Notes: generated by a model from the letters alone, not told the origin. A stretch of 64,000 bases of DNA from Pirellulales bacterium (GCA_035939775.1 DASZFO010000380.1:6577-70576); one strand, 5' to 3'. Positions 26,894-36,091 are shown, numbered from the stretch's first letter. Program-made: numbers and translations.

Positions 26894-27856
26894 TCACTTC
26901 GCGGGCTCGCCCCGCAGCATTTTCAGATACGCGTCAGTCGTATCCGTCGGTTTGAGCCCGTTCGGCTGAGTCAGTCCACTGGGTTGATAGACGAACTCGC
27001 GAGCATCCATCGGCGCATTTAACCGAACATCGAAAAACTCCGTGGTCACGATGGCGCGATATCCTGGAAGGATCCCCCCCTGCCCTTCCACATCCGATTT
27101 GCCGATGCGCCGCAAATACTCGATGCGATAGGGAATCCAGTCGGACTGACCGACATAGAGCACGACATGCTCCGGCAAGTGGGCGGGGAGTTTTTTCCAT
27201 TCGATCGGTCGTCCTGCTTCGATCGCGCCGCGCAACTCAGGCACGGCTGCGGCCAACTGAGCGGGCCGCCATTGGCCGTCGACGACCCACACGAGATGGT
27301 CTCGGAGCTGCGTCTGAGCAGCACGGTCGAATTGAAAGTTTTGCCGTAGTCCCGCGATCATCTTCGAGAGGCCTCCAATCGACATCGGACCTGGCGAGAC
27401 GTTGGATGCTGTTCGACCGTCACTTTGAAGCTGAACCTGAATTCGGTCCAGATCGACCCGGTTCAAACTGCGTCCGGTGGGAAGCTCGCGAAAGGTCCAG
27501 AAGAAGTGACCGTCGCTGATCTCGCGCAGGGTGTACGTTGCGTCGCCGACTTGGCTCTTCAATTCGAATCGCGATAACTGTCGCAGCCCGCTTCCCTGTT
27601 GAAGATAAATCCCCGTGCCTATTACTTGTTGCTCGAACAGATCAACCTGATTGCGGACCTTGGCCGACAGCGATTGGAGCTGATCGATCGTCTGCTCGAC
27701 GCGCTCGACCAGTGCTTCAGCCTCCTGACTCGAGCTTCCGGACTGAGATGCGGAGGCTCCTCCCGATTCCACAACACTCGATGGGGTCTCGGCTTGCGCC
27801 GGCATGACGAGGACCGTGGCGATCGCAAATGAGAAGATAGGGCAACTTATCTTCAT
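26894..27856 (-). CDS. Secreted hypothetical protein (possibly LolA-like fold)
   Basis: 320 aa. Signal peptide MKISCPIFSFAIATVLVMPAQAETP. A coiled-coil-like N-terminal segment follows. The fold guess is weak. Confidence 0.5.
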   Translation of the reverse strand: MKISCPIFSFAIATVLVMPAQAETPSSVVESGGASASQSGSSSQEAEALVERVEQTIDQLQSLSAKVRNQVDLFEQQVIGTGIYLQQGSGLRQLSRFELKSQVGDATYTLREISDGHFFWTFRELPTGRSLNRVDLDRIQVQLQSDGRTASNVSPGPMSIGGLSKMIAGLRQNFQFDRAAQTQLRDHLVWVVDGQWRPAQLAAAVPELRGAIEAGRPIEWKKLPAHLPEHVVLYVGQSDWIPYRIEYLRRIGKSDVEGQGGILPGYRAIVTTEFFDVRLNAPMDAREFVYQPSGLTQPNGLKPTDTTDAYLKMLRGEPAK

Positions 27857-28186
27857 TTTCGGGTTTTGCCGGATTTGCCAAAGAATCCCGTTGTAGCACG
27901 CCGACCAATTACGTCAGAGGCACGCCCCAAGCGCGGAAGGCAAGCGTATAGCTCGCAATTTCCGCGATTAGGCGGTCTTGACCGAACAGTCAGTCCAGCC
28001 TGGAAAGACCCGGCGGCGGGGCATTGTAGGACCGAGGGGAGACTGCGGTCCACACCAATTGTCAACGGTCGCAACCGGCCGCCGCTCGCGGCAGCCGGCA
28101 TACGACGGGCGTCGATTACCAATCTTGCAGTGGGCTTGGGCGACTCGACCCAAGCACTCGCGAGAGTGACTCTGAGGGGGGAAACC

Positions 28187-29380
28187 ATGAGACTTTCGTT
28201 GGATCGTTGGACGCTGCTGCTGGCGTCGGCCGCCGTGGCGACCGGCTGCACGCTGCCCTATGAGTCGCAGCATCAGCATCTGGCCAAGTTTGAGACCACC
28301 GTGCAGCCGGCCACCAAGGTGCTGCCGCCCGCCGCCATGCTGCACCATCCGGGTCCGGGCGTCGATGGCCCAGGGCCGGGTGTGTTTGGCGTCGGCGCGC
28401 CGCCGATGATGTATGGCGGCCAGCCCGACACTTCGCAAATCGGCTTCCGTGGCAACGACGGTATGAAGATCTTCTGGGATGTCGGCGGGCACGGCCTGTT
28501 CGACTCGGAGCCGCTCGTTGAACCGGGCCGTTACAACTTCCCACAAGGGGCCATCTACCGACTCAAGCTGACGAACATTCCAGGCCGCCCTGGCGTGGAA
28601 CTCTATCCCACGCTGGAACTCGCCCTGGCGACCCCGCGGACGGAAGCGTTCCTCGCGCACAATTTCATCCCCTTCGAGTTGACCGCTGAAGACTTCGAGC
28701 AAGTGCTCTCCGGCAACTTCGTGACCAAGGTGATCTATCTCCCCGACGCCGAGCACCAAGAAGCGGTGTTGGCGGGAGCGGAAACCTTGGTGAGCACGCG
28801 GCTTGAGCCGGGCAAAGACCCGATCATGGAAGCCGAACGACGCGGCTCGATCATGGCGATCATCCGCATCGGCAACAAGGATTTGCAAGCTCCGGGCGCC
28901 GAAGGCGGCAATGGCATCATCCAAACCGGATTCCATAGCCCGCTGCTTGGCACGACCGGCAACTGCGGTCCGGAAGGCTGCGGCGGCGGAGTGCCGGGCG
29001 GTTATCAAGTAGCCGGGGGGATGCCCCCAGGATTTGTGGCCGGCGTCACCTCACCGCTCTATGGAATGCCGATCACGGGCACGCCAATCGGACTGGCTGG
29101 CCCGCCGCACGTGCCGCTTGGCGTGCCGGCCGGTTTGCAGGAACACATCATTGCGAACCACACGCACATGTCGATTCCCGACACGACCAAGAGAGTCAAG
29201 ATCGATGTCAAGCAAGAACCGGGCTTGTCGTATCCGAACCCGGTTCACCACGTAGTCATCGTCGAGGCGACGCACACGCCGCCGGTCGAGTATCACCAGC
29301 CGCTGGTGGACCACCACCAGGAGGCGCCGGGCGTTCCCGACAATTGCGACAACTGCGGCAACTGCGGTCCCGGACACTAA
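28187..29380 (+). CDS. Lipoprotein of unknown function, gene 1 of a 3-gene envelope operon
   Basis: ATG at 28187 follows GAGGGGGG. Lipobox LLLASAAVATGC. Gly/Pro-rich segments. C-terminal Cys cluster DNCDNCGNCGPGH. Shares a domain with the next gene. Confidence 0.65.
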   Translation: MRLSLDRWTLLLASAAVATGCTLPYESQHQHLAKFETTVQPATKVLPPAAMLHHPGPGVDGPGPGVFGVGAPPMMYGGQPDTSQIGFRGNDGMKIFWDVGGHGLFDSEPLVEPGRYNFPQGAIYRLKLTNIPGRPGVELYPTLELALATPRTEAFLAHNFIPFELTAEDFEQVLSGNFVTKVIYLPDAEHQEAVLAGAETLVSTRLEPGKDPIMEAERRGSIMAIIRIGNKDLQAPGAEGGNGIIQTGFHSPLLGTTGNCGPEGCGGGVPGGYQVAGGMPPGFVAGVTSPLYGMPITGTPIGLAGPPHVPLGVPAGLQEHIIANHTHMSIPDTTKRVKIDVKQEPGLSYPNPVHHVVIVEATHTPPVEYHQPLVDHHQEAPGVPDNCDNCGNCGPGH

Positions 29381-29571
29381 GGAGCGCAGCCAGTCGCAAA
29401 CGGAAACGCAGAACAGCGATCTCAAGCCCAGGGGCGACAACCCCTGGGCTTGACCGCTGTGCAGAGAAGCGGCGAGCGGCACGTGACAGTCGATAGCGGC
29501 GCGACCCGCTGAATTAGTCCTATCCTTCGTACTTCGGACTTCATACTTTGTACTTCGCGCTTATCACGACA

Positions 29572-30312
29572 ATGGTCGACATGCACCGCAGCCGAGCGAA
29601 TTGCCCGGAGGTCTTCCGACCGCAAACTGCCGGCAAGTGGCTTGCTCTGGTGATCGCGGTGTGGGCTCACAGCTCGATTCTACTGGCCCAGCAACCGCCG
29701 GTTCACTACGAACATGCAGGAGCGCTGCCACCGGGAGCGATTGGCAGCCGGCAGCTTGAGCGAGGCGGACCATTGCCGGGATATTTTCAGCCGGTTGAGA
29801 TCGAGGCGCCCGCGGGCGCCTCGGTCTCAATGGCCGTGGACGATCAATTCAGCCCGCCAGCCGCTGCCCCGCTGAAAGCCGGTATGCTGATCGGCTCGGT
29901 CTATCGGCTGCGCGTGATGGGGATTCCGCGACACGAAGGGGTCGAGGTGTTCCCGACGATCGAAGTCGTCAATCGTCTTTATCCTCCGCCGGGACAGGAA
30001 GTGCGATTCCCCGTGCCGGTCGAAGTGACGCTCGAGGATCTGGAATTGGCAATGGACGGACATTTCGTCACGCGGATCGTCTATTTGGAGGATCCGAAGC
30101 TGGCACTGCCCGCCGCCGCCGACAAGGAGCATCAAAACTGGTTCGAGGTCGGACCGCACGACGATCCGCTGGCCGTGGCCGACCGCTTGGGCCGGCCGAT
30201 GGCCATTCTCCGAATCGGCGGCCGCGTGCCAACCGATCCCGATCGACCAGGAGGCGAATTCATGTACCACTCCCCTCCCCTGCTCATGCTTTCGGGTCAC
30301 CAATCGCAATGA
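29572..30312 (+). CDS. Secreted protein paralogous to the core of gene 1
   Basis: Hydrophobic segment WLALVIAVWAHSSILLAQQ. The segment GSVYRLRVMGIPRHEGVEVFPTIEVV..VEVTLEDLELAMDGHFVTRIVYLEDP aligns to GAIYRLKLTNIPGRPGVELYPTLELA..FELTAEDFEQVLSGNFVTKVIYLPDA of gene 1. The start is uncertain (29548, 29572 or 29581). Confidence 0.6.
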   Translation: MVDMHRSRANCPEVFRPQTAGKWLALVIAVWAHSSILLAQQPPVHYEHAGALPPGAIGSRQLERGGPLPGYFQPVEIEAPAGASVSMAVDDQFSPPAAAPLKAGMLIGSVYRLRVMGIPRHEGVEVFPTIEVVNRLYPPPGQEVRFPVPVEVTLEDLELAMDGHFVTRIVYLEDPKLALPAAADKEHQNWFEVGPHDDPLAVADRLGRPMAILRIGGRVPTDPDRPGGEFMYHSPPLLMLSGHQSQ

Positions 30313-31547
30313 AGCTGCGCCGCTTCCAAATTGTGATCGCCCTGCTCTGCCTCGCGGGTTGCCAGGCGCCGCAGTCGCACGGACCGATTCCGACGGGCGC
30401 TGGCGATGCGATGGCTGTCGGCGCTCCGTTGCCCGTCGGTCCCAAATTCGCCGCTGGCGCGCCGAAGTCGCAGCTCCAGCCGCAGCAGCCGGGATTGCCG
30501 ACCACCGCCTTCACCGGCTATCCGGGGGACGGTTATACTCAGCCCGGCAATGTGCCCGAATTCATGCAACAGGCGGGCGATTGCACGCCATTGCCCACTG
30601 CGACGTTCGGCCCTTGGCGTCCGCCCGGAATCGGCGGCACTTGGCCGCCCGATGAATACATCTGCGATGGCGGCGGCTCGCCGCAAACCGTCGTTCGCTC
30701 CGATTGGCGGATCGAGGGACTCAAGCCCGAAGAGACGATCGCCCACTTCGACACGATCGACGGCCGGACCGTGGTCGAGCCGACGAACAAGGTTTGCCTC
30801 TACGCTCCGCGATTCGCCGCGGTTCGCAAAGTCGATACTCCGTTCGACGGCCACCAGCTCGAAGAGGCCAGCGGCATCGCGATCCGCGAAGGGTTGCACC
30901 AAGCCAATGAGGCGAATCTCGCTCGATCCGCCATGCAGCCGCTCGAACCAATCGGGGCGATCGAAGACAAACAGAGCATCGCGCTGGTGAAGCAGCAGCC
31001 AGGCATCGACCTCTCGAATCGGATCGGCGCCGGCGCCGTTCAAGATCGCGTCAGGCCGTATGAAGATTTTCTGTACATCCGTTCGGGCGTGATGCAAGAT
31101 GAAGAAAAGCCGGTCCTCGCCCAGCGAATTCAAGCGGCCATCACATGGACGAGCGACCGAGGCGTGCAGGTCACGCTGAGCGGTCGTCGGGCAACGCCCG
31201 TCATTGGCGATCAGCGGGCGAGCGCCGTCTATGAAGTCGATGTGCCCAATCATCCGCGGCTGCAAATCTGCAAGATCGCCTCGACCGACAACGCCCAGCC
31301 GGGCGAAACGGTCGATTTCACGATCCGCTTCGACAACGTCGGCGATCAGAAGATGGGGAACGTCACGATCGTCGACAATCTCACCACGCGGCTGGAATAC
31401 GTGCCCGACTCGGAGCAAAGCTCGGCTAAGACCACATTCTCGACGCAGCCAAACGAAGTCGGCTCGCTCGTCCTGCGCTGGGAAATCACCGACCCACTCG
31501 CCCCCGGCCAAGGCGGCGTTATTCGCTTCCAGTGCAAGGTGCGGTAG
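30309..31547 (+). CDS. Lipoprotein with C-terminal DUF11 (conserved repeat) domain
   Basis: Lipobox VIALLCLAGCQ. ATGA overlap with the upstream stop. C-terminal segment PGETVDFTIRFDNVGDQKMGNVTIVDNLTTRLEYVPDS is DUF11/TIGR01451-like. Confidence 0.7.
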   Translation: MKLRRFQIVIALLCLAGCQAPQSHGPIPTGAGDAMAVGAPLPVGPKFAAGAPKSQLQPQQPGLPTTAFTGYPGDGYTQPGNVPEFMQQAGDCTPLPTATFGPWRPPGIGGTWPPDEYICDGGGSPQTVVRSDWRIEGLKPEETIAHFDTIDGRTVVEPTNKVCLYAPRFAAVRKVDTPFDGHQLEEASGIAIREGLHQANEANLARSAMQPLEPIGAIEDKQSIALVKQQPGIDLSNRIGAGAVQDRVRPYEDFLYIRSGVMQDEEKPVLAQRIQAAITWTSDRGVQVTLSGRRATPVIGDQRASAVYEVDVPNHPRLQICKIASTDNAQPGETVDFTIRFDNVGDQKMGNVTIVDNLTTRLEYVPDSEQSSAKTTFSTQPNEVGSLVLRWEITDPLAPGQGGVIRFQCKVR

Positions 31548-31614
31548 CGCCAGGACCATCCGAATCGCGATCCGCCTCCGAGCAGTTCTTCCGTGCTTCG
31601 TTGCGTATATTAGA

Positions 31615-32190
31615 ATGACGCGTATGGAGCGTGCGAACTACAAGCGATTCTATGCTTTGTTATTCAAGCCAATTGCAGACCGGCTCGGTCCACTTGACAC
31701 CGAGACGCTGATGGCGATCCTCGGATTCGACTTCGGCGGACCGGTAAGCCTTTGCACCGTCGGGCATTCACGCGAGCGGTTTGTCACATACGTTTCGTGC
31801 GAATTAGCAGTGCGTGATGGCCAACAGTCGGGCAAAACGGGTCCGTACGAGGTGATGATGACTTGCGACGATGAGGACTGGGCGAGAAGGATCCTAACAC
31901 GAGTTGGACGCATGTCGTTTAATAGCCTGTTCGAGCATGGCCACAGCATCGACCTTGGCGAGATTGTCGGAGCCGAGTGCCCAATGCAGGGATTGGTCGT
32001 CGAAGAGTATGCCCGTGTTCCGATTGACGGTCGAGCCTACGGCATCCTTCGTATTCACGGGGTGACTCGCCCTGAGTTAGAATTTGCAATGATGTTTGGC
32101 ACGAATCGGTTGCTTGACTGCGTTAAGCGAGGAGGAGTGTATCCGCGAACAAGCATTCACCGGAGGGAGTCTGTCGAGACCGGAGTTTAA
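31615..32190 (+). CDS. SUFU-like (suppressor-of-fused family) protein, immunity-protein type
   Basis: Start at MTRMERANYKRFY. The C-terminal pattern IHGVTRPELEFAMMFGTNRLLDCVKRGGVYPRTSIHRRESV resembles bacterial SUFU-family proteins. Assignment is from memory. Confidence 0.55.
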   Translation: MTRMERANYKRFYALLFKPIADRLGPLDTETLMAILGFDFGGPVSLCTVGHSRERFVTYVSCELAVRDGQQSGKTGPYEVMMTCDDEDWARRILTRVGRMSFNSLFEHGHSIDLGEIVGAECPMQGLVVEEYARVPIDGRAYGILRIHGVTRPELEFAMMFGTNRLLDCVKRGGVYPRTSIHRRESVETGV

Positions 32191-32199
32191 TCGAACCTC

Positions 32200-32616
32200 G
32201 TGGAAAGAATTCTGGCGATTTCGCATATGGGTACAACATTGTCGGCCATTGAGCGGGTTCGACGGGCACTTGTATCTCCGACCCGTGGGGTCATCGGGAT
32301 CGCCGACGACTTGGTGGTTTCGGCGTCGGAGCTAGGCCTTGGAATCGAATGGCGCGAAGGACATTGCCGTCTCCGGTGGGGCGAGCCCGATTCGAAGGTA
32401 ACCGCCAGGATGTACCTTCCGAAATCGGTCTTCCGTGCTGTGCTGGCGCGCATCGCAGCCCTTTGCAACGAGCGATACCCAAACTCTGTTTCGTCGTACG
32501 GTGGCTCCGGAACATTTTCGACGGGCGCTAGAGCCGAAATCGTGTATCAGGTTACGTTCTCAAACACGCCTGCGGACCAGAGATTGGAACTTAAGCGTGA
32601 ATCCCACGCTTCGTGA
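32200..32616 (+). CDS. Hypothetical protein (138 aa)
   Basis: Open frame with a GTG start 9 nt after the SUFU-like stop. No motif recognised. Confidence 0.4.
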   Translation: MERILAISHMGTTLSAIERVRRALVSPTRGVIGIADDLVVSASELGLGIEWREGHCRLRWGEPDSKVTARMYLPKSVFRAVLARIAALCNERYPNSVSSYGGSGTFSTGARAEIVYQVTFSNTPADQRLELKRESHAS

Positions 32617-32623
32617 ATCTTGT

Positions 32624-33280
32624 ATGCACTCCTGGATTCGCCGGCCCTTTGTTGTGGTCTCCTTGGTCGCGATTTCCTCGCTGGGGATAGTTAAGGCGGC
32701 GGACAAGGCTGGCGATTCCTCGCGGAAATACGCCGATGGCCCGATCGTGCCGGGGGATTTCAAGGCTGCGGTGCCTGATCCGACGCCCGTCAAGGATGGC
32801 GTCAAGTTGCGGGCGATGACGCATACGGACATCCGATATTCGACCCGTTATCGCTGGGACGAATCGAACCCTGGAATGGTCTCGGCCTGGCTCACGCGGT
32901 TCGATTGCTACGCGGCGCTCGTTTGCGACAAATGCTGGATCAAGGAGCCGATGGACTTGCGGCTCATTGACCACGAGCAGGGGCATTTCGACATCACTGA
33001 GATCAACGCCCGGCGAGCCCAGAAGAAATTCGATCAGTTGATCGCCGAGAAGGGTCTAGTCGGCCACGGCCACGAAGAAGCGTCGGCCGTCGCTGATCTC
33101 AACAGGCAAGTTGACGACCAAATGCAGCAGGTCTTCGACAAGGAACGCGACGAGCAAATCGAATACGATCGCGTCACCAATCACGGCCGGAACCATTCCG
33201 CTCAAGCCGAGCAGCGCCAAATTCAACTCGATCGACTTAGAGAACTCGACGCGAAGGATTTGAACACGACCGACATGTGA
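32624..33280 (+). CDS. DUF922-like secreted putative Zn-metalloprotease
   Basis: Signal segment MHSWIRRPFVVVSLVAISSLGIVKAAD. The motif LIDHEQGHFDITE contains an HExxH. Confidence 0.6.
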   Translation: MHSWIRRPFVVVSLVAISSLGIVKAADKAGDSSRKYADGPIVPGDFKAAVPDPTPVKDGVKLRAMTHTDIRYSTRYRWDESNPGMVSAWLTRFDCYAALVCDKCWIKEPMDLRLIDHEQGHFDITEINARRAQKKFDQLIAEKGLVGHGHEEASAVADLNRQVDDQMQQVFDKERDEQIEYDRVTNHGRNHSAQAEQRQIQLDRLRELDAKDLNTTDM

Positions 33281-33334: not shown

Positions 33335-34699
33335 TCAGTTTCCTCGCACCGTCTGCTCGCCGGTCGTTCGATTCGGTACGTTCTTGGGCGACGTGGCCAT
33401 GCGTGCGGGATTCTTCGCTAGACCCGCAGCAACGGCTCCTCCCTTGACCGGAACGTGGTCGATCGAGCCGAAGTCGGCCCAGAAATCTTGCCAGCTCACG
33501 CTGAACGTGCCGTACTTGATATTCTTGTTGTTCCCGCGCAGCCCCCAGGGATTGTAGAGCGTCACCTGCTCGCTCGCCGGATCGTAGCCGACGATCACGT
33601 AGCTATGATGCGGCACCAAGGAATCGGGAACTTCGTTTTTGGAATTCGCCAGTTCCAGTTCTCCTTTGGCCAGGGAGGCAATCGTGTTTAACCCGTCGCG
33701 TGAAGCGGCCACACCGGTCAATAGCGGCAGCGTGGTCGTGCTCTTGCCGCCGCGGCCGATCTCTGCGAACGAATTGACTCCGGCGGTGCCCTTGGTGGTT
33801 AACCAACCGGATTCATTCAACTGGGCCAGCGCCTTCTCCGCCAGAGCTAGCCAGAGGACATTTTTGGCGTTGGCGGCCAAATCACCGCGATTCTCGTAGA
33901 CAAAACGCCCCTTCTCGTCTACCGGCAGGAAGCGATCGACGGTCAAGAAGACCGGTTTGCCTTCGCGATAAAACCGGACGGTGAAGGTGCCGTCGCGATT
34001 GTCGCCAAACATGCGTTGAATCTGTTCGGGATTCCGCAGCGCGACTTCGCCCAAGGCCGCCAGGAAAAAGCAGTCGCCGAGATCACCCTGATGCAGGTCC
34101 GACAACTTCGGCGCGCCGTCGAACAGTACGCCGGCCGTCCGCTGATAATGGAATTTGGAATCAATCTGCGGGCGGTCGGCGCCGAAGAACCATTTTTGCA
34201 CCAGGGCTTCGAGATGCTTTCCGCTGCTGCCCGGCTCGAGATCGCCGAGCGGCTGTCCCTGGAAACGGGCATTCGCCGGATCGGCGAGAACCACTTTTCG
34301 CGCGAGATCGGCGACAAATGGGGGCATCCCGAGGAGCTTGGCGTTTTCGGCCAGAGCGCGCAGCGTTTGAAATTGATCGTCGTCAATCCGATCGCCCTCG
34401 GCCGCCGAGTGAAAGATCGCGATCATGTCCGAGCGGGTAAGATGATGGTGGTCGGCGAATCGCGCGGCCGCCAGATCGCGCAAGTCCGGATCGGAGAGAT
34501 GCCGTTCGAACCATTCTGGCGACAAGCTCGTTGCCGGTGGCGCGGACGGCGTCTGGCCGCGAGTTGCTGACCGTCGCGTCGGAACACCACTCGGCGAGGC
34601 ATCGGCCGCGAATGCAACGCGGCCGATGCCGGTCAGAGCGACCATGACCGCGAAGTTAAGCAAAGTTTTGACTGTCGAGTTGATGGTAGGCCAGGTCAT
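33335..34699 (-). CDS. Calpain-family (peptidase C2-like) cysteine protease, secreted
   Basis: Start at MTWPTINSTVKTLLNFAVMVALTGIGRVAFA. Catalytic Cys box QGDLGDCFFLAALGEVA. His in HHSYVIVGY. Asn in LYNPWG. Confidence 0.75.
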   Translation of the reverse strand: MTWPTINSTVKTLLNFAVMVALTGIGRVAFAADASPSGVPTRRSATRGQTPSAPPATSLSPEWFERHLSDPDLRDLAAARFADHHHLTRSDMIAIFHSAAEGDRIDDDQFQTLRALAENAKLLGMPPFVADLARKVVLADPANARFQGQPLGDLEPGSSGKHLEALVQKWFFGADRPQIDSKFHYQRTAGVLFDGAPKLSDLHQGDLGDCFFLAALGEVALRNPEQIQRMFGDNRDGTFTVRFYREGKPVFLTVDRFLPVDEKGRFVYENRGDLAANAKNVLWLALAEKALAQLNESGWLTTKGTAGVNSFAEIGRGGKSTTTLPLLTGVAASRDGLNTIASLAKGELELANSKNEVPDSLVPHHSYVIVGYDPASEQVTLYNPWGLRGNNKNIKYGTFSVSWQDFWADFGSIDHVPVKGGAVAAGLAKNPARMATSPKNVPNRTTGEQTVRGN

Positions 34700-34836
34700 G
34701 GCATGTCCTTGCGCTCGCGGTGATCTTGGTTCAGCCTTAATGAGCGCAGATTCCGCGGCTTTGTTACGCGGAAGCGATTTGCCTTGACCCGATTCGCACG
34801 GTCGCGGTACAGTTCCGGCCGGGAGGTCGTACTTTG

Positions 34837-34852
34837 CTCCCCTGCCCTGCCC
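34837..34852 (+). repeat. CTCCCCTGCCCTGCCC 16-mer (copy 2), in the calpain / phosphohexomutase-like divergent spacer
   Basis: Exact match to 33316-33331. Both copies are preceded by CGTACT. Confidence 0.8.
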
Positions 34853-34873
34853 GCGCTTTAGGTTGCTTTGCCA

Positions 34874-36091
34874 ATGGATCTCGAAACGGTTTACCGATGC
34901 CCGGGTGAAGCGTATGACATCAGCCGCTGGGTCCATCTCGGTCGCCTGGCCAGCTTCTATCCGGCTTGCGGCGACTGCCCACATCGCGGCGACACGGCAA
35001 CCTTGTCGGCTCGCCGCATCAGGATGTTGACCGTCGTTCAGCGGCAGGCCGGCAGGGCGAACCCGCCTTTCCACGCCGAGGGCATCTCAGGCGTTTATTT
35101 GAACGAGGTCGGACCCGAACTTGCTCGCCGCGTCGGGCAAGCTCTGGGGACGTACCTCTCGCACTACGATTCGGACACTGCGCCGCGCGTCGTTTTAGCC
35201 AATGATGGCCGCCCATCGACGATCGAACTCGCGACCACCGCCGCGGACGGCCTGCGCTGGACGGGTTGCTCGGTGGCCGACCTCGGCGCCGCGACGGCCC
35301 CTTGCTTGGCGCTCGCCGCCGAGCGGCAAGAGGCGGACGGCGCGCTGCTCATTGGGAACCCCGGAGGCAAACAACAAGAAGTCGGGCTGACGCTCTGGGG
35401 GCGATGCGGCGAACCGCTTTCCGCGCCGGGAGAGTTGGATTCCGTCCGTCGCCTGGTCGACTCCCCTGCCCCGCGGCCACGGCGAGCTTTTGGCGGCATC
35501 GAGCAGATTATTGCGGGCGACAGCTACTTGGCGCAGCTCGAAACGCATTATCACGCGTTGCGGCCACTGCGGTTTTTCGTCGATACGACGTCATTCGCGC
35601 TCGTCGAATATATCAAGCGATTGACGAGCAAGGTCGCGCTGAAGATTCACTTCGAGTCACGGATTCTCCAACGGCTCCGCCCTGGCGAGGCGCATTTCGG
35701 CATTTGGATCGACGGCGACGGCGAACGCTGCCGCATCGTCGACGAGCGAGGAGAACCGGTATCTGTCGAGGCGCTCGTAGTACTTTTTGCTCGCGAGTCT
35801 CTCGCCGCACGGCAGAGTGTGAAGATCGTGCTGTCTGAGTCGATCAGCCAACTCGCGCCGACGTTGAACCGCCTGGGAGTTGAGACCTTCACGGCCGCTT
35901 CCAACCGGCAGGCGATTTACAACGCGGTGGTTCAGCATCAGCCCGACCTCGCGGCGGATGAGCATGGCCGGATCTGGTTCGCGGGCCAGTCAAACTGCGC
36001 CGATGCGCTCAAAGTGCTCACGCTGCTTCTGACGCTCCTGAGCCGCAGCGATCAGCCATTGTCGGAGCACATCGCTTCGGAGATACTCTGA
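34874..36091 (+). CDS. Phosphohexomutase-like protein with a degenerate active-site loop and an N-terminal Cys-rich motif
   Basis: N-terminal CPGEAY..FYPACGDCPH. PGM/PMM-like blocks: FHAEGISGVY, VLANDGRPST and ADLGAATAPCLALA. The position of the TASHNP phosphoserine loop reads LLIGNPGGKQ, with no Ser or His. Confidence 0.5.
   Translation: MDLETVYRCPGEAYDISRWVHLGRLASFYPACGDCPHRGDTATLSARRIRMLTVVQRQAGRANPPFHAEGISGVYLNEVGPELARRVGQALGTYLSHYDSDTAPRVVLANDGRPSTIELATTAADGLRWTGCSVADLGAATAPCLALAAERQEADGALLIGNPGGKQQEVGLTLWGRCGEPLSAPGELDSVRRLVDSPAPRPRRAFGGIEQIIAGDSYLAQLETHYHALRPLRFFVDTTSFALVEYIKRLTSKVALKIHFESRILQRLRPGEAHFGIWIDGDGERCRIVDERGEPVSVEALVVLFARESLAARQSVKIVLSESISQLAPTLNRLGVETFTAASNRQAIYNAVVQHQPDLAADEHGRIWFAGQSNCADALKVLTLLLTLLSRSDQPLSEHIASEIL

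Follow-up and report, generated by a model that had tools for sequence, protein, structure and literature searches.

What is the function of three adjacent genes that occupy positions 28187 to 31547 in a 64,000-nucleotide stretch of DNA from a Pirellulales bacterium (GCA_035939775.1, DASZFO010000380.1:6577-70576)? This full stretch is referred to below as the window, and all coordinates were counted from its first letter. An earlier note on this DNA had proposed a three-gene envelope operon; its gene positions were confirmed, on the plus strand, by the list of open reading frames (ORFs) and by direct translation. The first gene, g1 (28187..29380), encodes a lipoprotein of 397 amino acids; the second, g2 (29572..30312), a secreted protein of 246 amino acids; and the third, g3 (30309..31547), a lipoprotein of 412 amino acids ending in a CLIPPER-like domain. 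The window itself matched a Pirellulales metagenome-assembled genome (locus tags VGY55_25335 and VGY55_25345), and no further copies of the triad were found within the window. The answer that we propose, and to which we give an even chance of being correct, is that the three genes form an operon, found only in Planctomycetia and passed on by vertical descent, for a heteromeric structural complex of the cell envelope.

Genomes representing one species each in GTDB were scanned with two search patterns, the PGPGV-type motif of g1 and GTPIGL[PA]GP. At least 429 stretches were found to encode a relative of g1, and 80 loci were retrieved. The order g1-g2-g3 on one strand was kept in 68 of the 68 loci that had about 2 kb or more of DNA downstream of g1, and the loci without g3 all ended too early. 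Together with a domain of g1 and g2 that could not be assigned to any family (domain X, described below), this constancy supported the view that the operon is uncharacterised and specific to the lineage. The stop codon of g2 overlaps the start codon of g3 by four nucleotides (ATGA, 30309..30312, plus strand), as had been pointed out before, and judged from this overlap g2 and g3 are translationally coupled. The four-nucleotide overlap recurred in 34 of the 68 loci under a simple start-codon rule; overlaps of g1 with g2 were seen in few. In four loci (L046, L047, L060 and L076) g2 and g3 formed a single ORF, nine of the 120 best g3 matches were g2::g3 fusions of 650-720 amino acids, and on a contig of 7.08 Mb g1 was followed by a g2::g3 gene encoding 684 amino acids. 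The lipoprotein signal of g3 was lost in the four fused ORFs examined. No stronger evidence than these 'Rosetta-stone' fusions is available for the view that g2 and g3 act as one physical unit.

Homologues of g1 numbered at least 4,604, g2-type paralogues included, while 2,027 were found for g2 and 2,448 for g3. Identity between distant genomes was 50-60% for g1 and 55-65% for g2, which is high for proteins of the envelope. The homologues derived from assemblies named Pirellulales, Thermoguttaceae, Planctomycetia or Planctomycetota, and the only names attached to them were 'hypothetical protein', 'DUF11 domain-containing' and 'TIGR01451 repeat protein'. Two divergence classes of loci could be distinguished, one with g2 identities of 53-66% and one with 35-47%, the latter including assemblies under the names Planctomycetaceae or Planctomicrobium, so that the range of the triad takes in at least the Pirellulales and a second group of Planctomycetia. 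The triad was also observed in assemblies labelled Chitinophagaceae, Chitinophaga, Spirochaetota, Phycisphaerales or Kuenenia (L006, L009, L024, L034, L050, L061 and L082). Most of these oddly labelled loci shared planctomycete-type neighbours, namely pdxA and the divergent gene up320 described below, and the labels are probably errors of binning or naming. No account of the three genes was found in literature on crateriform structures, on OmcB and DUF11, on planctomycete envelope chemistry or on tethering.

All three products carry export signals. The N-terminus of g1 (MRLSLDRWTLLLASAAVATGC) comprises a signal peptide and the lipobox VATGC with Cys21 (28187..28249, plus strand); G20 and C21 were found in at least 90% of 42 aligned orthologues, and the lipobox cysteine itself was retained in 41 of them. 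The g2 protein carries a signal peptide and lacks a lipobox, and a signal-peptidase-I-like site, xLxA↓Q, is conserved four residues before an invariant VHYxH. The g3 protein begins with MKLRRFQIVIALLCLAGC and has the lipobox LAGC, which is LCSC in some orthologues; its cysteine was present in 47 of 56 orthologues, the remainder being mostly truncated at the N-terminus. Genes 1 and 3 had been read as encoding lipoproteins and gene 2 as encoding a secreted protein, and these readings were borne out by the sequence signals. As the lipoprotein signals of g1 and g3 and the signal-peptidase-I signal of g2 are conserved, all three proteins leave the cytoplasm.

A BLASTP comparison of g1 with g2 gave 33% identity over 154 amino acids (E 8e-20), far beyond chance. 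The shared domain, here called domain X, occupies amino acids 80-236 of g1 (28424..28894, plus strand), as located by BLASTP against g2 and by joint alignment, and amino acids 66-219 of g2, counted from 29581 (29776..30237, plus strand), as located by BLASTP, an AlphaFold2 model and joint alignment. When orthologues of both genes were aligned jointly, the domain was collinear over about 155 amino acids; the domain that the earlier note had recognised was thus real, while the length of about 130 amino acids given there was too short. Twenty columns were invariant in the g1 and g2 families alike, among them R46, E59, E65, D132 and R148, and by their sequences g1 and g2 are paralogous carriers of domain X. 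AlphaFold2 modelled the g2 copy as a beta-sandwich of about eight strands and two helices. No counterpart of domain X was found in Pfam, in NCBIfam, or among PDB sequences, profiles and folds, so that the earlier failure to name the domain was borne out. The VHL beta domain, which was returned by Foldseek against PDB as the best fold match of g2, was not accepted (E 0.03; TM-scores not exceeding 0.28). A weak BLASTP alignment suggesting a third copy in g3 was likewise rejected, its profile-profile probability being 0.2%.

When a domain X profile was searched against 1.84 billion representative proteins, 1,939 clusters, counted at 50% identity, had E values of 1e-3 or less; a limit of 1e-30 left 807. 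Proteins of other architectures were among the carriers: a protein of 1,316 amino acids (P0371) in which TPR repeats precede four or more copies of domain X, a protein (P0370) with DUF4145, a transmembrane helix and two copies, and two further proteins (P0369 and P0387) with two or three copies. The copies in these four multi-copy proteins were also unrecognised by Pfam. The presence of domain X in other multi-copy proteins marks it as an undescribed, reusable extracytoplasmic module.

From the N- to the C-terminus, g1 consists of a tether, domain X, a variable Gly/Cys spacer, an invariant Pro/Gly segment and a Cys-containing tail. Its composition, with 11% Pro and 14% Gly, agreed with the previous description of Gly/Pro-rich regions. 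The linker that follows the lipid anchor contains the motif HPGPGV(D/G)GPGPGV (28346..28384, plus strand) with an invariant core PGPGV-GPGPG; in the alignment of 42 orthologues all positions from P55 to G65 were invariant, save for a D or G at position 60. A second segment, AGVT.P.YGMP..GTPIGL(P/A)GPPH.PLG.PAGLQ.H (29036..29146, plus strand), contains many invariant positions among residues 286-320, including GTPIGL. The protein ends in an acidic tail with cysteines (DNCDNCGNCGPGH; 29339..29377, plus strand), in which C387 was conserved in 40 of 42 orthologues (95%) and C393 in 28 of 42. The remainder of the tail and the C-terminus itself are variable. The g1 protein has six cysteines and its orthologues have 3-17 each, mostly in variable regions. 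Neither g1 as a single protein nor its 42 orthologues gave a Pfam, NCBIfam or PDB match.

The start of g2 is likely the ATG at 29572 (MVDMHR..., 246 amino acids), because this start gives the length of P0001, an identical protein in the database, and because the orthologues begin likewise. Four residues past the predicted cleavage site begins the motif VHYxHxGxxPPGAIGxxQLxRGGPLPGYFQP (29701..29796, plus strand), which is followed by domain X; residues H42, H45, G52, G55, L59, P64, L65, Q70 and P71 were invariant in the orthologue alignment. Two invariant histidines in the VHYEH of this motif (29701-29715) lie six and nine residues from the predicted mature N-terminus, and they could form a metal-binding or docking motif in a part of the protein that was modelled with low confidence. 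The AlphaFold2 model of g2 had a mean predicted local distance difference test score (pLDDT) of 76.8, with residues 68-170 above 90. A conserved cysteine is absent from the g2 orthologues. No match in Pfam, NCBIfam or PDB sequences and profiles was obtained with g2 or with its 53 orthologues.

In g3 a variable spacer is followed by a conserved Pro/aromatic motif, a small beta domain, a conserved but poorly modelled region and the C-terminal CLIPPER-like domain. The motif PLP..GPW.PPGI..PWP.DEY..DGG and the small beta domain together span amino acids 95-175 (30591..30833, plus strand), and W103, P105, W112, P113, E116, D120, G121, Y165, P167, R168 and F169 were invariant. AlphaFold2 was confident only at residues of about 112-168, the small beta domain, and at 312-412, the C-terminal domain, with pLDDT values of 91-96 at amino acids 120-160 and of 87-98 in the C-terminal domain. 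The small beta domain had no Pfam match when 56 orthologues were scanned.

The terminus of g3 (31242..31547, plus strand) is a compact, seven-stranded form of the CLIPPER/DUF11 domain, and the DUF11 assignment made earlier was confirmed. Residues 318-411 matched PF01345 with 34.0 bits against a cutoff of 24.6, a match to TIGR01451 was also obtained (E 7e-11; 42 bits against 24), and all 56 aligned orthologues matched as well. DUF11 has since been renamed CLIPPER by Pfam, and many DUF11 domains are without an isopeptide bond (PMC12617251). The best PDB fold that Foldseek returned for the C-terminal model was 9ifr, with a probability of 1.00, a target-normalised TM-score of 0.56 and a root-mean-square deviation of 3.5 A over 96 columns, although the E value was only 5e-3; the g3 family profile matched 9ifr_A at 1.5e-4, its sole PDB sequence or profile match. 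The likeness to this domain extends from the family threshold and the CnaA-like beta-sandwich fold to two aligned residues: K322, which is invariant, aligns with the isopeptide lysine of 9IFR, and D356, which at least 90% of orthologues share, corresponds in the alignment to the aspartate of a conserved DUF11 motif. Unlike the family, however, which usually forms tandem repeats in the stalks of long adhesins, g3 has a single compact copy that ends a lipoprotein, covers profile positions 2-84 of 114 and stops short of the position of the isopeptide Asn partner. The last strand contains C409, one of seven cysteines in g3, which was 98% conserved. The final residues were C[RKV]VR in 55 of 56 orthologues and TIVR in one, and arginine was last in all 56.

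Directly upstream of g1 and divergent from it lies up320 (26894..27856, minus strand), encoding a secreted protein of 320 amino acids with a signal peptide ending AQA↓E. Of the 68 loci whose upstream DNA was long enough, 55 had a homologue in this position and orientation; over all 81 loci the count was 59. A profile of 13 up320 orthologues gave as its best PDB match the LolA protein of Pseudomonas aeruginosa (2w7q_A, E 1e-3), and LolA accounted for nine of the ten best profile matches, aligned in the same order; no Pfam or NCBIfam match was obtained at E up to 1. We consider up320 with moderate confidence to be LolA-like, and it may be a diverged periplasmic lipoprotein carrier of the lineage. 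It resembles LolA in being a secreted soluble protein with profile matches to several LolA crystal structures, but LolA has about 200 amino acids whereas up320 has 320, and up320 does not adjoin the triad in every genome. The gene pdxA and other housekeeping genes adjoined the triad less often (at most 37 of 81 loci), and an unbiased neighbour search returned no conserved partner beyond up320 and these loosely linked housekeeping genes.

Downstream of g3 the window contains a gene for a SUFU-like protein directly adjoining it (31624-32190; PF05076, E 1.4e-6), a gene for a DUF922 protein with an HEQGH motif (32435-33280) and, on the minus strand, a gene for a protein with a calpain-type cysteine peptidase domain and a long N-terminal extension (33335-35074; PF00648 Peptidase_C2, as taken from the precomputed annotation of the identical contig). 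None of the three was conserved in related loci, and as the SUFU-like and DUF922 genes were not, this region looks like a variable insertion point. A link to type II/IV secretion genes, which lie near the triad in L001, was rejected; neither the window nor the other loci showed such genes as conserved neighbours. The spacer between g1 and g2 contains a stem-loop (29424..29451, plus strand) consisting of an 11-bp perfect inverted repeat, AAGCCCAGGGG/CCCCTGGGCTT, whose arms are separated by CGACAA. It lies 44 nucleotides past the g1 stop codon, forms 13 pairs in the RNA fold, is not followed by a T tract and occurs once in the window, compared with zero expected by chance. It may determine how much g1 is made relative to g2 and g3, either as a partial terminator or as an mRNA-stability element: fewer transcripts might run on into g2-g3, or the transcript of g1 might be stabilised. 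Two antisense ORFs on the minus strand, one over g1 (27968-29008, 346 amino acids) and one over g3 (30297-31559, 420 amino acids), were rejected as genes and regarded as artefacts of a G+C content of 62-64%; they seem 'conserved' in related loci because the sense genes are conserved.

The earlier note had reported no enzyme or transporter motif, and none of the corresponding Pfam or NCBIfam families matched g1, g2 or g3 or the 151 family members aligned with them (42, 53 and 56 orthologues, respectively). DUF11-type matches in g3 were the only ones obtained in these scans. Only the last 100 residues of g3 fall into a described family; nothing described matches g1, g2 or the 300 residues with which g3 begins, and no known system shares the composition of the triad. 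That the products form a complex is probable from the g2::g3 fusions, the four-nucleotide overlap and the paralogy of g1 and g2. Within such a complex g2 would bind g3, and since g3 loses its own lipid anchor in the fusions, attachment to g2 can replace the anchor. The g1 protein would pair with g2 through both copies of domain X, as duplicated subunits often do, and the invariant Pro/Gly-rich motifs of all three proteins, which are linear and lie outside the folded parts, would serve as extended docking peptides, either within the complex or toward another envelope partner. C387 of g1 and C409 of g3 could cross-link the subunits. The two lipoproteins would be ferried across the periplasm by up320, and the assembly would be a periplasmic scaffold, anchored by lipid, that keeps the outer membrane stable or at a set distance. 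A structural role is suggested because catalytic and transport motifs are absent and conservation is like that of housekeeping genes.

Several points weigh against a structural complex. Neither a peptidoglycan-binding nor a membrane-insertion domain was detected, so that the word 'structural' is a conclusion by elimination. Unrelated proteins with several copies carry domain X too; it is a general module that is not specific to this complex. About 140 conserved residues of g3 and much of g1 were modelled at low confidence, which leaves the architecture incomplete. Finally, the similarity of up320 to LolA is borderline (E 1e-3, no Pfam match), and the gene is absent from 13 of the 68 loci.

Other explanations have to be weighed against the same data. 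The triad might do the work of Lpp, Pal or OmpA, its lipoproteins being outer-membrane anchors that bind peptidoglycan or are covalently linked to it. A survey by Witwinowski and colleagues detected none of the Lpp, Pal, OmpA and OmpM tethers in Planctomycetes, which leaves this group without a known tethering system, and a novel one was suggested (bioRxiv 10.1101/2021.05.31.446380). The triad is restricted to the lineage, is lipoprotein-based like Lpp and Pal, and resembles these abundant tethers in a conservation like that of housekeeping systems; the C[RKV]VR end of g3 suggests that a free C-terminus matters. However, no OmpA_C, LysM, SPOR, SLH or Lpp family was matched at E up to 1 by g1-g3 or the 151 family members, the last residue of g3 is arginine and not the lysine used for cross-linking by Lpp, and the C-terminus of g1 is variable. 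We regard this explanation as unlikely, and as quite unlikely the more general conclusion that the triad, perhaps with up320, would be the lineage-specific means by which Planctomycetes fasten their outer membrane to the cell wall. A different analogy is offered by the Chlamydiae, which belong to one superphylum with the Planctomycetes. The outer membrane complex of chlamydiae includes OmcA, a small lipoprotein rich in cysteine, which is encoded together with the DUF11-containing OmcB, and planctomycete envelopes have classically been described as rich in proline and cystine. By analogy, g1-g3 might form a disulfide-cross-linked protein layer of the envelope: here too an operon of a related phylum pairs a Cys-containing lipoprotein with a DUF11 envelope protein, g1 is rich in Pro and Gly and has a Cys-containing tail, and C387 of g1 and C409 of g3 are nearly invariant. 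Yet the triad is far lower in cysteine, with six residues in g1, most of them in variable regions, seven in g3 and no conserved one in g2. It also has a third subunit, a novel shared domain and a single DUF11 copy, and g3 and its orthologues matched DUF11-type families only and none of the Pfam families of chlamydial outer membrane proteins. Such a layer is therefore considered very unlikely.

The conserved divergent position of up320, its LolA-like profile similarity and the presence of two lipoproteins in the operon would also fit a machinery for lipoprotein or lipid trafficking, in which up320 is the carrier and g1-g3 the outer-membrane acceptor that replaces LolB, a protein confined, to our knowledge, to Beta- and Gammaproteobacteria. 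The weakness of the LolA match and the 13 loci without up320 count against this, as does the lack of any similarity of g1-g3 to the LolA/LolB fold in Foldseek searches and PDB profiles. The adjacency of up320 is explained equally well if g1 and g3 are its cargo, and an acceptor function appears highly improbable. We hold it just as improbable that the triad is a component of a surface appendage or of adhesion, such as the base of fibres or of pit-like crateriform structures or a holdfast adhesin. CLIPPER/DUF11 domains are typical of fibrillar adhesin stalks (PMC12617251), no protein component of the crateriform structures is known (PMC12673574), and in L001 the triad is followed at a distance of about 3 kb by genes for a type II/IV secretion ATPase and platform. 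The DUF11 domain of g3, however, is present as one truncated copy at the C-terminus instead of a tandem stalk, the secretion genes do not recur as conserved neighbours, and the analysis turned up no pilin, secretin or adhesive head domain. Least probable of all is that g1, g2 and g3 are independent envelope proteins, adjacent by shared ancestry alone and without a joint function. Vertical inheritance does keep gene order to some extent here, as the wider synteny (pdxA, YdjM and a D-aminoacyl-tRNA deacylase gene) is partly conserved. But the triad was kept in 68 of 68 loci, against at most 37 of 81 for flanking genes, the genes immediately downstream were not conserved, and translational coupling and repeated g2::g3 fusion are unexpected for unrelated genes.

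The double-membraned envelope of planctomycetes is unusual, and its protein architecture is largely unknown. Conserved operons specific to a lineage are common; what sets the triad apart is its tight linkage, the open question of the envelope to which it relates and the large new domain family that it defines. With about 1,900 sequence clusters, the family of domain X has neither a Pfam entry nor a solved structure. As a heteromeric envelope complex, the triad would offer a concrete candidate set for work on this envelope in genetically tractable planctomycetes, consisting of two lipoproteins and a predicted periplasmic partner with 50-65% identity between distant genomes.

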